64,000 nt of DNA from the NCBI GenBank assembly GCA_964390635.1, contig CAYMIG010000005.1, forward strand, positions 148,320 to 212,319, read 5' to 3'. Position 1 is the stretch's first letter, and every line of letters begins with the position of its first letter. The DNA comes from an uncultured Vampirovibrionales bacterium (GTDB lineage: Bacteria; Cyanobacteriota; Vampirovibrionia; Vampirovibrionales; Vampirovibrionaceae). The position numbers and the translations under genes were made by a program. Of this stretch, positions 532 to 4,573 are shown piece after piece. The notes below the pieces were generated by a model. The model did not search any database, had not been told where the DNA came from, and saw only the letters and a list, made by a program, of their open reading frames with translations.

Positions 532-1326
532 TTAAAAAATCTTCGAGAAATCGTTTAGGAAGTTGCTGAGGGCCTGCATGAAAATGGGCAGGGTGAGCAG
601 CAAAACGGCCACCCCGATGGCCGGTTTCAGCGCAAAACTAAGCTGAAACACGGGCATTTGCTGCGCGGCCCGGTTGACGATGCCCAGCATGATGTCCACG
701 GCCATGGTCACCACCATTACCGGGGCCATCAGGGTGACCCCCACGGTCAGAATGTTGCCGGAGACGGTGATGAGGTAATCCAGATCCACCACCTGCATAA
801 AGGGCTGCTGCACGGTGAACAGCGGAAACACCTCCAGGCTGCGGTGCAGGGCCAGAATCATCCACTGCATGCCGCCCAGGTACAGAAACAGCAGGATGGT
901 CAGGTAGGCAAACAGGGTTTCCAGAATCATGGCCTGCTTGCCGGAGGCCGGATCCAGCAACGTGGCGCTGGACAGGCCGATCTGGTTGTTGATCAGGTTG
1001 CCCGCGGCGTAGGCGGCCTGCAGGATCATATCGGCGATAAAGCCAATCAGCGCCCCCACCAGGGCGTTTACAATAATCAGGAACACGAAGGTGCCGCCCT
1101 GTCCGGCGGTAAACACCGCCTCGGGCTTCACCATCCAGAACAGCGTGCCGGTCAGGTACATGGCCATGATGATTTTGACCACGATGGGGATGTTTTTGCG
1201 GTTGAAAATGGGCCCCGTGGAGCAGAAGGCCAGCATGCGCACAAACAACAGCAGCAAGCCGTCCAGGATGGGGCCAAACTGCTGGTGCAGGGCGCCAAAG
1301 GCGTGCAAGGCGGCGTCAAATTGCAT
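532..1326 (-). CDS. fliR: flagellar/T3SS export apparatus protein FliR (SctT family)
   Basis: 264 aa polytopic membrane protein with FliR-like hydrophobic profile; last gene of fliO-P-Q-R order; start overlaps fliQ stop (ATGA). Confidence 0.85.
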   Translation of the reverse strand: MQFDAALHAFGALHQQFGPILDGLLLLFVRMLAFCSTGPIFNRKNIPIVVKIIMAMYLTGTLFWMVKPEAVFTAGQGGTFVFLIIVNALVGALIGFIADMILQAAYAAGNLINNQIGLSSATLLDPASGKQAMILETLFAYLTILLFLYLGGMQWMILALHRSLEVFPLFTVQQPFMQVVDLDYLITVSGNILTVGVTLMAPVMVVTMAVDIMLGIVNRAAQQMPVFQLSFALKPAIGVAVLLLTLPIFMQALSNFLNDFSKIF

Positions 1327-1328
1327 GG

Positions 1329-1838
1329 CTAGCGTTTCTCTTTATCCAGGGCCATGCGCTCGGCGGGGCCCAGGGCCTGGCCAGATCCCTTGGATTGCTG
1401 GGTTTTCAACACGCTGAAGCCGCCGCTGCCGCCTTCATCCGGCACCCGCCACTGCTCGGCCATTTCTTTCAGCTTGTTGGCCGAAGGGGCCCCGGTGGCT
1501 TGCAGGTTGAAAAACTGTCGGGCCCGCGCCATGCCGTCCCCGCTGGTTTTGGGCGGCAGCACGAACACGCCGTCCTGGGGAACCTCGTTAAAGGCAATCT
1601 GGAAGGATTCCCGCACGTAGTTGGTCAGCATGGTCATCATCAGCCCCCCGCCCAGCAGGATGATGAGAAACACGCTCAAAATCTTGGGGGCGGCGGCAAT
1701 GGTTTGTTCCTGCACCTGGGTGACCGCTTGCAAAATGCCCACCACCAGGCCCACCCCGGCGGCGGTCAATACGCATGGCAGGGACAAAATGAGGCTGAGC
1801 ACCAGCCCGTGTCCCAGATGTTCTACCAGCAATTCCAT
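1329..1838 (-). CDS. fliQ: FliQ (SctS family) export-gate protein with ~80-aa hydrophilic C-terminal extension
   Basis: First ~88 aa match FliQ two-helix hairpin (…AGVGLVVGILQAVTQVQEQT…ILLGGGLMMTMLTNYVRESF); ORF continues 80 aa (Gly/Ser/Gln-rich) before overlapping fliR start. Confidence 0.8.
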   Translation of the reverse strand: MELLVEHLGHGLVLSLILSLPCVLTAAGVGLVVGILQAVTQVQEQTIAAAPKILSVFLIILLGGGLMMTMLTNYVRESFQIAFNEVPQDGVFVLPPKTSGDGMARARQFFNLQATGAPSANKLKEMAEQWRVPDEGGSGGFSVLKTQQSKGSGQALGPAERMALDKEKR

Positions 1839-1861
1839 CAGGCGCTCCTTTCCGTTGGGCC

Positions 1862-2503: not shown

Positions 2504-2555
2504 GGTCTTTCCACTCCTTATGTTTGTGTGTTAAAGGCTTTCGTTTGCAGGGTAG

Positions 2556-3029
2556 CTAGCTTAGCTTGAACCGGGAGGCCGCCAACCAACGCAGGCTGGC
2601 CAGCATGCGGGCGCCAAAGCCCCCTTCCACCGGGGTCAGTCGGGCGGGCTGAGGTGCGGTTTCAAGGATGGGCTGAAGGGGCTGGCCGGACGGCGGCGGG
2701 GCCTCCTCCCCGGCGCGTGTCGCGGCGGGCGCGGGGGCGCTCTCCAGGGGTTCCAGCCGGGAAAGGAACTGGGTGCTCTCCAAAGAGGTGGCAATCAGGA
2801 AGCGCTCGTTGCCGGAGCGAATGACGTACAGGTTCTTGCGGGCTTCCAGGGGCATCATGGACTCCACTTCCAGCTTCTTTTCTGATTCTAGGCGCCTGGC
2901 CCCGAAAAGCATGCCGCCCCCGCCCGCATGCCGGCGCAAGTACCAGTAGACGGCGTAAATCGCCCCGATGGCGAGCATGGTGTAGGCCATAAACAGGCCC
3001 AGGTAGTGCAGCATGCCGGTGGATCCCAT
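2556..3029 (-). CDS. fliO: FliO-like small single-pass membrane protein
   Basis: 157 aa, N-terminal TM helix then short conserved block (NLYVIRSGNERFLIATSLE), Pro/Ala-rich tail; positioned between C-ring gene and fliP as in fliN-fliO-fliP; TAATG overlap with upstream gene. Confidence 0.55.
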   Translation of the reverse strand: MGSTGMLHYLGLFMAYTMLAIGAIYAVYWYLRRHAGGGGMLFGARRLESEKKLEVESMMPLEARKNLYVIRSGNERFLIATSLESTQFLSRLEPLESAPAPAATRAGEEAPPPSGQPLQPILETAPQPARLTPVEGGFGARMLASLRWLAASRFKLS

Positions 3030-4573
3030 TACCAGTCTTCCTCATCGTCAAAGGTATCGTCAAAATCGTCGTTCAGCAGCGAATCGGCGGCTTCTTCCTC
3101 GCCCTCGGGAGCGGGCATGGCCGGGGGAGGCGGGGGCAGCTCGTCTGCCGCCTGGGGTACCGGGGCTGCCGTCGGGGCCGTTGGGGCAGCCGGGGCCGGC
3201 ATGGCGGCGGGCGGCTCATGGGCGGGTGCGTCGTCGGCCTGCACCTGCTTGATGCGCACCCCGAACTTGTCGCCCACGATGACCAGCTCGCCGTAGGCCA
3301 GCGGCTTGCCTTCCACCTTCAGGCAGATTTCGTTGTTGATCAGATCGCCCATTTCCACCACCAGGCCTTCGCTCATTTGCTTCAGTTGCTTGAGCGGCAG
3401 CTTGATGGGCAAAAACTCGGCGTCCACCTCAATCATCAGGTTGTCCCACAGGTTTTGCCGGGCGGCGGTCAGGTGCGGTTGGGTTTCCATCATGGCGATA
3501 TCCTGGGTTACGGGTACTAACAAATGCTGTTTGTGGCGGATTTCCGGGGTGAACGGAAGCTGCAGCTCGCGGTGGGGCTCAATAAGATAGAGCTGCTCGG
3601 CGCTGGAATTCTCAAATACCACCAAGTCACCGGGTTCCAGCTGGTTCAAATCCGAAAGCGCCACGCGGGTGCTGCCAATATACAGCCGGGCCTCGGTTTC
3701 CACGTGGTAAAAGAAGGTATCCTGGATGTGCGGGGCGGTCTCCGGGCCGACCGGGGCGTTATCCAGCTTGATGGCCCCGATGGGCAGGCTAATTAACAGT
3801 TTGCCCACTTCCCGGGGCTCCTTGAACTTCAGGGGACGGCGGTGGGGCAGGGGATCCTCGGGTTCCTCAATCTGCAGCACCCAGGCCAGGTGAACCTGGT
3901 CCATGCGGGCCTTTTTGGCCTGTTTGGGCTTTTTAATCAGGTTTTTCATCAGCACGGTCAGCACATCGCGGCTGAACTCGTTCAGAATGGTGGTTTCCAG
4001 CGGGCTGAGCTGGGTGAAGCTGAAGGCTTTGCCGGGCCGAGGCCCCAACACCTGGCCGAGCAGGGAGTCACAGGCGCTGTCAGAAATGCGCAGCAGGGCC
4101 ACGGCGGGATCCCCGCCACCCGCCCCATCGGCGGCGGGGGCTTGCACCCCGGGCAGCATCAGCTGGGAGACGTGGAAGTCATCGCCCTGCCACCAGTAGT
4201 GGGCTTTGTGGCTGGCGCTAAAAAGCGTCATGCGCACCGGCAGGCCCCAGAACTGCTTGATGACATCGGCCAACAGGGGAGTCAGCCCGGCGGCGGCCCG
4301 GATGACGGCCTCCCACTGCGCCCAGGTTACGGGGCGCGGCTTCTGGCTGATGACCGCTTCATGACTGGCTGCTTGGCTTGTGTCCACGCGAGTTCCCATA
4401 ACCACAACGCGCTCTCTAACTTCCACCTCTGGAGCGTCCCAGTCATCAGGATACACGATTTGGGGGAAAAGGGGCATCCACCATCCGGATGACGCCAAGA
4501 GGCTTTGCAGCGGGCCGACCCTGAAAGGGTAAGCCGGAATTGGGGTTTTGCAAGCGGGACGGGCAACGATCAC
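3029..4573 (-). CDS. flagellar C-ring/switch protein of FliM-FliN/FliY (SctQ) type with two SpoA-like domains and acidic Pro-rich C-terminal tail
   Basis: 514 aa; SpoA-like segments (…RLYIGSTRVALSDLNQLEPGDLVVFEN… and …MSEGLVVEMGDLINNEICLKVEGKPLAYGELVIVGDKFGVRIKQV…); tail PAPAAPTAPTAAP…DDFDDTFDDEEDW; first gene of operon, divergent from rpsT. Confidence 0.75.
   Translation of the reverse strand: MIVARPACKTPIPAYPFRVGPLQSLLASSGWWMPLFPQIVYPDDWDAPEVEVRERVVVMGTRVDTSQAASHEAVISQKPRPVTWAQWEAVIRAAAGLTPLLADVIKQFWGLPVRMTLFSASHKAHYWWQGDDFHVSQLMLPGVQAPAADGAGGGDPAVALLRISDSACDSLLGQVLGPRPGKAFSFTQLSPLETTILNEFSRDVLTVLMKNLIKKPKQAKKARMDQVHLAWVLQIEEPEDPLPHRRPLKFKEPREVGKLLISLPIGAIKLDNAPVGPETAPHIQDTFFYHVETEARLYIGSTRVALSDLNQLEPGDLVVFENSSAEQLYLIEPHRELQLPFTPEIRHKQHLLVPVTQDIAMMETQPHLTAARQNLWDNLMIEVDAEFLPIKLPLKQLKQMSEGLVVEMGDLINNEICLKVEGKPLAYGELVIVGDKFGVRIKQVQADDAPAHEPPAAMPAPAAPTAPTAAPVPQAADELPPPPPAMPAPEGEEEAADSLLNDDFDDTFDDEEDW

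Follow-up and report, generated by a model that had tools for sequence, protein, structure and literature searches.

A conserved operon for a flagellum-type export gate with an injectisome-style ring protein in Vampirovibrionales

A five-gene operon for a ring protein and an export gate

Here we examine an operon of flagellum-type export genes in a 64,000-nucleotide (nt) stretch of DNA, referred to throughout as the window, from contig CAYMIG010000005.1 of an uncultured Vampirovibrionales bacterium (GenBank assembly GCA_964390635.1). Five intact, closely spaced open reading frames (ORFs) on the minus strand of positions 532-4573 encode a fused FliM/FliN-type protein, FliO, FliP, FliQ and FliR, that is, what would be the ring or platform protein of a type III export machine of the flagellar kind, together with its FliO-FliP-FliQ-FliR core. 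All five exceed the Pfam gathering scores of their families (FliMN_C in two stretches, FliO, FliP, Bac_export_3 for FliQ and Bac_export_1 for FliR), which agrees with the gene identities given in a first-pass annotation made from the sequence alone; that annotation took the operon for an orphan gate with an atypical FliQ and ring protein. We find instead that the operon is ordinary for its lineage and not an orphan, and on balance we incline to the view that it supplies the gate and platform of a second flagellum-like machine, one peculiar to Melainabacteria and separate from the canonical flagellum under chemotaxis control. The genes are the following.

4573..3029, minus strand: ring protein, a FliM/FliN-type fusion with the SctQ domain layout (maximal ORF, 514 amino acids (aa), GTG start)
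3029..2556, minus strand: FliO-like protein, 157 aa, with one membrane helix (Pfam FliO)
2503..1862, minus strand: FliP, 213 aa, without an N-terminal signal peptide (Pfam FliP)
1838..1329, minus strand: FliQ, 169 aa (Bac_export_3)
1326..532, minus strand: FliR, 264 aa (Bac_export_1)

The stop codon of the ring gene overlaps the fliO start (TAATG), the remaining intergenic gaps are 2-52 nt long, and AGGAG-like sites precede fliP and fliQ. Third-position GC in the five ORFs (0.77-0.85) resembles that of the other real genes of the window, and the base composition of the operon matches its surroundings. The length of 514 aa that the first-pass annotation gave for the ring protein holds for the maximal ORF; the protein itself is likely to be shorter and to start either at Met33 (4477, 482 aa), which is where gene callers place its beginning, or at Met59 (4399, 456 aa), near which its homologues begin. 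Numbered on the maximal ORF, its parts are as follows.

3779..4324, minus strand: FliM-middle/CheC-like domain, residues ~84-265 (AlphaFold2 and Foldseek)
3539..3700, minus strand: first SpoA domain, residues ~292-345 (second stretch of the Pfam FliMN_C match; model beta strands 292-341)
3491..3504, minus strand: candidate internal start, the ATG of Met361, which follows AGGA by 7 nt and immediately precedes the second SpoA domain (sequence motif)
3242..3442, minus strand: second SpoA domain, FliN-like, residues 378-444 (best Pfam stretch, PF01052)
3032..3232, minus strand: variable Pro/Ala-rich linker and conserved acidic C-terminal motif LNDDFDD..DDEEDW (alignment and model)

An AlphaFold2 model of the ring protein, built on 22 homologues, is ordered over residues 84-445. 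Compared with the PDB by Foldseek, its top match is full-length Salmonella FliM from a C-ring cryo-EM structure (8umd_C, E 1.4e-8), followed by FliM middle domains, CheC and FliY, with the FliM chains at E 1e-8 to 1e-6 and probability 1.0; the FliM middle domain is thus recognized in this protein by fold only. The second SpoA domain is recognized from sequence as well: E. coli FliN gives a tblastn match at 3442-3242, and a profile of the 22 homologues finds Thermotoga maritima FliN (1o6a) at E 4.9e-12, whereas HrcQ2, YscQ-C and SpaO reach only E 0.1-0.4. With a FliM middle domain followed by two SpoA domains, the second of them FliN-like, the protein is a FliM-FliN fusion, and it has equally the domain layout of SctQ. 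Its best NCBIfam match is in fact SctQ (TIGR02551, residues 172-443), at 71 bits below the cutoff of 100.8 and spanning nearly the whole model, while the FliM model TIGR01397 scores 24.6 against a cutoff of 219.6 and covers only the SpoA part. On inspection of the 22-sequence alignment, made without a motif model, we saw neither a CheY-binding N-terminal peptide nor a conserved GGXG (FliG-binding) motif. The Pro/Ala-rich, acidic tail that the first-pass annotation had noted along with the two SpoA domains is likewise real: the linker and tail region has a predicted local distance difference test score (pLDDT) below 50, and an end motif, FLNDDFDE..DDEEDW, is kept among the 22 aligned homologues, with W514 nearly invariant.

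A product consisting of the second SpoA domain alone, made from an internal start, is known for the injectisome SctQ proteins YscQ, SpaO and Spa33. Most orthologues of the ring gene have the same internal ATG as the one at Met361, with AGGA or AGGAG 6-10 nt upstream, and the motif suggests that a separate SpoA2 fragment may be translated from there. We also note that in one Vampirovibrionales locus (L025, 7066-8681; related loci are numbered with an L here) the ring gene is split at the point of the internal ATG into a 348-aa FliM-like and a 190-aa FliN-like gene, the stop of one overlapping the start of the other.

FliQ is longer than expected, as the first-pass annotation had remarked. Bac_export_3 spans residues 6-75 only, the canonical two-helix core, and solved FliQ and SpaQ chains (86-89 aa) align to residue ~81 only; the alignment with Salmonella FliQ stops at 79 and E. 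coli FliQ ends near residue 95. What follows the core is given below.

~1553..1332, minus strand: C-terminal extension of FliQ, ~75 aa (alignment beyond the core)

We found no family or structure for this extension. Across the main Vampirovibrionales clade, FliQ is 163-172 aa long in total and the extension is partly conserved in sequence, with the common motifs NE(I/V)P.DG.F.LPP, QARA..FF and (S/A)E.M; the loop region of FliQ is almost invariant among relatives. The extension is longer in the low-GC relatives described below (163-293 aa in total) and is short or absent only in L025 (99 aa; 9781-10080).

Conservation, partner genes and surroundings

For the ring protein we found 73 homologues that are 30-100% identical to it; the few that carry a name are from Vampirovibrio or Vampirovibrionales. 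A scan of one genome per species returned 24 ring-gene loci, nearly all of them labelled Vampirovibrionales, Vampirovibrio or Melainabacteria and among them that of Vampirovibrio chlorellavorus NCIMB 11383. In 15 complete Vampirovibrionales loci, that of V. chlorellavorus included, and in 3 truncated ones the operon is syntenic together with ~10 kb of housekeeping flanks, the common order being cdaA, unknown genes, a TPR gene, two family-9 glycosyltransferase genes, rpsT (divergent), the ring gene, fliO, fliP, fliQ, fliR and nrdJ. Identity among these syntenic loci is 74-89% for FliP, far higher than for most of the genes nearby, and 30-50% for the ring protein; for FliP it is 74-93% across the order and 51-68% in low-GC relatives. 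Given this synteny across the order, the isolated position of the operon is a conserved, vertically inherited state, and the operon is neither a remnant nor an island.

The low-GC relatives (33-36% GC), which are of uncertain taxonomy, came from a metagenome scan and carry the same operon, with a fusion protein of 398-415 aa that has an acidic tail, a FliP of 213-216 aa, a long FliQ in most, and fliR. Where FliP is 64-68% identical to ours fliO is also present, and L062 and L064 have a short ORF at its place. Gene order is kept across deep lineages. Both features that the first-pass annotation had called atypical occur well beyond the source genome: the fused ring protein and, in the majority of lineages, the extension of FliQ. 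Between fliQ and fliR, three of the low-GC loci (L046 13078-14205, L047 12780-13319 and L051 12729-13181) carry an additional gene whose product has a signal peptide; the longest of these products has a weak, sub-threshold match to a pilus-formation/secretin N-terminal region (E 8e-4).

Earlier papers have read the partial flagellar gene sets of Melainabacteria as ongoing gene loss (PMC3787301, PMC4040986), and the operon might accordingly be a decaying relic of a lost flagellum. We consider this very improbable. The five ORFs are intact and their third-position GC is high, FliP is strongly conserved, the FliQ loop hardly varies, and the gene order has survived in deep lineages.

A truly orphan gate, repurposed to stand alone and working without FlhA, FlhB or an ATPase, is a possibility that the first-pass annotation left open; in its favour is the window itself, in which no partner gene is found. 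The first-pass annotation was right that the rest of the machine is not here: Pfam scans of ~40 more ORFs found no further type III secretion gene in the 64 kb, and neither did tblastn of the window with E. coli flagellar proteins and with the flagellar and basal-body proteins of relatives. We nevertheless hold such a gate to be highly unlikely, since FlhA, FliH and FliF turned up at another locus in every relative whose genes outside the operon we examined and since the place between rpsT and nrdJ is a conserved arrangement, not a remnant. FliE, rod, FliI and FlhB genes also lie elsewhere in relatives. The ring gene, FlhA and a FliI-type ATPase all fall within 10 kb in L024, which like L025 represents a divergent lineage, and FlhA of this type has orthologues 66-81% identical across the order, which argues against a gate that does without it. 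In L025, flgC and flgB adjoin the operon and flhB lies at the contig end, and in L062 FlgE-like and FliJ genes are found near the operon. V. chlorellavorus has a cluster that ends in the FlhA orthologue, flgF-flgG-flgB-RDD-flgC-SLT-fliE-fliF-(170 aa)-(373 aa)-fliH-flhA (L032), and two other assemblies have fliF-(376/397 aa)-fliH-flhA and also carry the ring gene (L023/L033 and L020/L034). These partner loci were read in relatives of the source organism.

The protein between fliF and fliH occupies the position of FliG and has 373-397 aa (L032 8154-9275; L033 7807-8937; L034 7698-8891). It showed no similarity to FliG in a PDB profile search, in Pfam or in an hhalign comparison with E. coli FliG (probability 0.6%), nor did any other Pfam family or PDB entry match it. 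A short ERP.VQ.FV stretch in it vaguely recalls the EHPQ region of FliG. Two further observations concern related loci: L047 encodes at 17697-19181 (minus strand) a soluble protein of 494 aa whose match to the FlhA family is confined to the C-terminal cytoplasmic half and which is possibly the "second flhA" in the gene list of Di Rienzi et al., and in Vampirovibrio sp. DET50b a gene for a protein with RTX calcium-binding repeats lies directly upstream of fliF (L033 4727-5620, minus strand).

The boundaries of the operon are as the first-pass annotation gave them. Upstream lies rpsT, divergent (4729-4983, plus strand). Downstream, ~415 bp of non-coding DNA within window positions 1-531 separate fliR from an unrelated gene that begins at 116/113 on the minus strand and runs off the window; it encodes a class II ribonucleotide reductase (nrdJ), the V. 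chlorellavorus orthologue having Ribonuc_red_2_N and Ribonuc_red_lgC. Two features lie in these flanks.

4574..4728, no strand assigned: divergent intergenic region shared with rpsT, presumed promoter region (position only)
354..338, minus strand: terminator-like hairpin and T run, downstream of fliR (consensus scan, pattern match only)

The former would extend to 4400 if the ring gene begins at Met59, and a sigma-70 consensus scan of it gave no match. Rfam gave no match at gathering scores anywhere in the window, the 415-bp gap before nrdJ included.

As to other genes of the window, positions 8737-13112 encode three paralogous proteins of 404, 459 and 477 aa, without Pfam match, which have an N-terminal FGG/FSGG motif, a single C-terminal membrane helix and a tail ending in F.QFQ, and which hold the same position beside the operon in most Vampirovibrionales loci. 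Two otherwise unrelated ORFs, 19700-20005 and 26822-29026, both start with MGD(L/F)(S/T)FN, which might be a targeting signal or chance; this shared N-terminus was not found in the related loci. The second of them (734 aa) is extremely acidic and has several repeats resembling DG..GDLN.DELR..LELV..G(F/Y).L. The long ORFs 21252-23177 and 24168-25799 (plus strand) were rejected as genes, being shadow ORFs with a composition rich in Gly, His, Ala and Val; the real genes lie opposite them, on the minus strand (21279-23198, 639 aa, and 24426-25961, 511 aa).

Flagellar and injectisome affinities

We compared the operon with two known arrangements. It has the same order as the canonical fliLMNOPQR and fliPQR-flhBA operons of Salmonella, E. 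coli and Bacillus, namely C-ring gene(s), fliO, fliP, fliQ and fliR, and in relatives FliF, FliE, rod proteins, FliH and FlhA are associated with it. In the PDB, the window's FliP and FliQ match the solved flagellar chains best. FliP (237 bits for PF00813) scores 232.5 for the flagellar equivalog TIGR01103, above its cutoff of 217.45, and matches flagellar FliP chains at 162-199 bits and SpaP at 132-140. In NCBIfam the flagellar models outscore the injectisome ones for the window's proteins (fliP 232 against 203, fliQ 70 against 56, fliR 166 against 124) and for the FlhA of relatives (687 against 579), which among solved structures also prefers Salmonella FlhA (423) to YscV (383). FliP is 43-50% identical to plasmid-borne flagellar FliP and 35-44% to SctR proteins. 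Together with a FliO whose gene lies directly upstream of fliP and which reaches 34.8 bits for Pfam PF04347 (cutoff 22), these scores support the flagellar ancestry that the first-pass annotation had argued from FliO. The operon departs from the canonical ones in that FliM and FliN are fused into a protein in which we saw no CheY-binding peptide or GGXG and which has a conserved acidic tail ending in Trp, in that FliQ is ~75 aa longer, in that flhB and flhA are not adjacent, and in that no recognizable FliG stands beside FliF. FliQ, FliR and FliO also fall below their flagellar equivalog cutoffs (TIGR01402 fliQ, 70.3 against 88.9; TIGR01400 fliR, 166.2 against 168.6; TIGR03500), and FliR, with 173 bits for Bac_export_1, matches solved FliR and SpaR about equally, at 63 bits.

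The injectisome clusters sctQ-sctR-sctS-sctT (yscQRST in Yersinia, spa33-spa24-spa9-spa29 in Shigella) share with the operon the Q-R-S-T gene order, a single ring protein with an N-terminal FliM-like domain and two SpoA domains for which SctQ is the best NCBIfam match, a candidate internal start that would yield a SpoA2-only product, and a short FliP/SctR of ~215 aa without signal peptide. We dropped the last of these as an injectisome-like trait, as short FliPs occur in Firmicutes flagella too. The operon differs from such clusters in having a FliO gene between Q and R, in a second SpoA domain much closer to FliN than to HrcQ2, YscQ-C or SpaO, and in the flagellar rod, FliE and full-length FliF genes that accompany the set, without any secretin or needle genes seen.

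These likenesses raise the question of whether the operon is a horizontally acquired injectisome-type, non-flagellar secretion island. In favour of such an origin one could cite the SctQ match of the ring protein, the fact that FliP passes the broad EscR/YscR/HrcR subfamily model (228.6 against a cutoff of 179), and the position of FliP in trees. Neighbour-joining trees of 164 FliP/SctR sequences put the FliP proteins of this operon in a clade of their own with 100% bootstrap, and the SctR group is the nearest neighbour of that clade in 63% of replicates; the exact joint split of the clade with SctR has 19-33% support, and we regard the proximity as a weak lead that is open to long-branch attraction. 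The island is largely refuted by the remaining evidence and we give it very little credence. FliO is present, the equivalog cutoffs for SctQ, SctR, SctS and SctT are all missed (TIGR02551, 71/100.8; TIGR01102, 203/208.6; TIGR01403, 56.5/76.5; TIGR01401, 123.7/163), partial scans of the window and of ORFs from ~60 related loci turned up no gene for a secretin, a needle, SctD or a translocon, and the composition of the operon is like that of its surroundings. The housekeeping synteny conserved across the order also argues for vertical descent and against an island.

One flagellum or two machines

If the operon is flagellar by descent, it remains to ask which machine it serves, and here the published gene lists matter. 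V. chlorellavorus swims by a polar flagellum, and Table S3 of its genome paper lists the operon as spoA-fliO-fliP-fliQ-fliR (IMG 2600256631-27) and, separately, fliP-fliQ-fliR-flhB-flhA, flgB-flgC-fliE-fliF-fliG-fliH-fliI and fliN-fliM-fliL-motB-motA, as well as L/P-ring, hook-junction and cap genes (PMC4451040). The gene numbers of that table fit our locus L027, including the TPR gene four genes away. FliF, FliE, FliH, FlhA and FlhB are listed there twice and rod genes in at least two copies, FliG, FliM, FliN and FliI once, and the paper counts all the listed genes as one flagellum (PMC4451040). From the separate fliPQR-flhBA, fliG, fliM and fliN we conclude that the operon probably lies outside the canonical flagellar set (PMC4451040). 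The first-pass annotation had named a complete canonical flagellar regulon elsewhere in the genome, together with FliQ extensions common in the lineage, as evidence against its reading; most of this is borne out in relatives, where the operon and its flanks are conserved, partner genes lie at other loci and the FliQ extension is widespread. The published canonical set of V. chlorellavorus is separate, and the operon is probably not its normal member. Of the best 120 matches in our homology searches with FliP and FlhA, every one was an orthologue belonging to the present set and none came from a canonical second set, so the canonical second set is known from Table S3 only; none of the nearest non-orthologous FliP representatives bears the name Vampirovibrio.

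Other published sets show the same genes. In ACD20 the gene numbering gives fliP, fliQ, one gene and fliR, as in our low-GC relatives, and another cluster of the order flgG-flgG-.-flgC-..-fliF-.-fliH-flhA-fliI-..-flgE (PMC3787301), which agrees with L032, L024 and L062. These 13 ACD20 genes are "MEL-COGs", with orthologues in all four genomes analysed, including the complete single-scaffold genome MEL.A1, which is reported to be without filament, cap, junction and L/P-ring genes (PMC3787301), and in the analysis of Soo et al. 6 of 9 Gastranaerophilales genomes have retained just some of the flagellar genes (PMC4040986). Published tables thus suggest that the present gene set coexists with the canonical flagellum and outlasts it; its retention in genomes reported without a full flagellum, together with its strong sequence conservation, would point to a role that outlives the swimming flagellum. 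A search of the literature on type III secretion in Vampirovibrio and Vampirovibrionales and on the export apparatus of Melainabacteria found no paper that treats the set as a separate system.

The main competing explanation is that the operon is an ordinary part of a dispersed flagellar regulon and forms the gate and switch of a single swimming flagellum, with the fused ring protein and the long FliQ mere lineage divergence. We regard this as a real possibility, if one that we do not expect to hold. FliO is present and the family scores favour flagellar models; rod, FliE, FliF, FliH, FliJ and FlgE-like genes accompany the set, and L020 has a flagellin gene close to the operon; in this lineage dispersal of flagellar genes is common, and V. 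chlorellavorus does have a polar flagellum (PMC4451040). What speaks against a single flagellum is the separate canonical core with FliG, FliM and FliN in Table S3 (PMC4451040), the ring protein without CheY-binding peptide or GGXG motif, the absence of a recognizable FliG beside FliF, and the reported retention of the set in genomes judged unable to build a flagellum.

We therefore prefer, tentatively, the second flagellum-like machine, and we see in the lineage-wide gene set a little-described variant of the flagellar export machine, one whose platform is of injectisome style. Whether it serves a flagellum or has been repurposed, a question first put for the isolated operon, now concerns this whole conserved gene set. 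Several points weigh against a second machine. With its rod proteins, FliE, full-length FliF, FlgE-like gene and the flagellin gene ~5 kb downstream of fliR in one Melainabacteria genome (L020 19676-20578, minus strand), the set could simply be the flagellum of the lineage. The CheY-binding and GGXG motifs were judged missing by eye, from an alignment, and the protein in the position of FliG may, to go by its sequence, be a very diverged FliG. The evidence for a canonical second set is a published annotation table, and that for the partner genes comes from relatives of the source organism. Di Rienzi et al. mention flagellin genes from MEL.A1 too, which is inconsistent with the stated absence of a filament (PMC3787301).

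By analogy with Salmonella FliOPQR, with the C-ring and with injectisomes, we can propose how the products might act. FliO would chaperone the assembly of FliP, and FlhB and FlhA would join the channel and so complete the gate. The FliM-like fusion, possibly with a separately translated FliN-like SpoA2 fragment, would form a cytoplasmic platform on which FliH and the ATPase dock. The MS ring, FliE, the rod proteins, FliH, FlhA, FlhB and FliI would be encoded at other loci, as they are in relatives. A stronger version of the second machine, which strikes us as rather unlikely, is that the set makes a non-motility, flagellum-derived export machine composed of an MS ring, a rod, the gate, an SctQ-like platform and an elongated FliQ, without recognizable FliG or CheY input; the set is reportedly kept by Melainabacteria in which the flagellum has been lost. 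Such a machine could have arisen in parallel with the injectisome and independently of it, or could be the nearest relative of the injectisome on the flagellar side, and in predators such as Vampirovibrio it might export factors that are used on the prey.

Secondary flagellar systems within one genome are known from the lateral flagella of Vibrio and Aeromonas, Flag-2 of E. coli and fla2 of Rhodobacter, each of them complete and equipped with a FliG, FliM, FliN, hook, filament and stators of its own. Flagellar subsets are also kept in non-motile bacteria, as the basal bodies of Buchnera and the FliI, FlhA and FliF paralogues of chlamydiae show, and a FliOPQR-FlhAB 'CORE' of Bacillus has reportedly been proposed to serve nanotubes. 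The present set resembles the secondary systems in that two paralogous core sets occur in one genome, as Table S3 reports for V. chlorellavorus (PMC4451040), and differs from them in that the table has one FliG, FliM, FliN, FliI and L/P-ring set and in that the ring protein here is fused and SctQ-like. It resembles the non-motile subsets in that export-apparatus and basal-body genes are kept without a full filament set, as reported for MEL.A1 and several Gastranaerophilales, and differs from them in being a distinct paralogous version with signatures of its own that reportedly stands beside a complete canonical set in at least one species.

Even if the operon belongs to an ordinary flagellum, a conserved FliQ extension of 75-200 residues and an acidic tail that ends in Trp are unexplained features of a complex that is structurally well understood. 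If, on the other hand, a second machine exists, then non-photosynthetic cyanobacteria would possess a previously unrecognized flagellum-like export apparatus that published genome papers have counted among their "flagellar genes". The inference of motility from Melainabacteria genomes would change accordingly, since an incomplete set could no longer be taken as the sign of a flagellum in decay. In addition, living members of the lineage would show a flagellar core combined with an injectisome-style platform, which bears on the origin of injectisomes from flagella.

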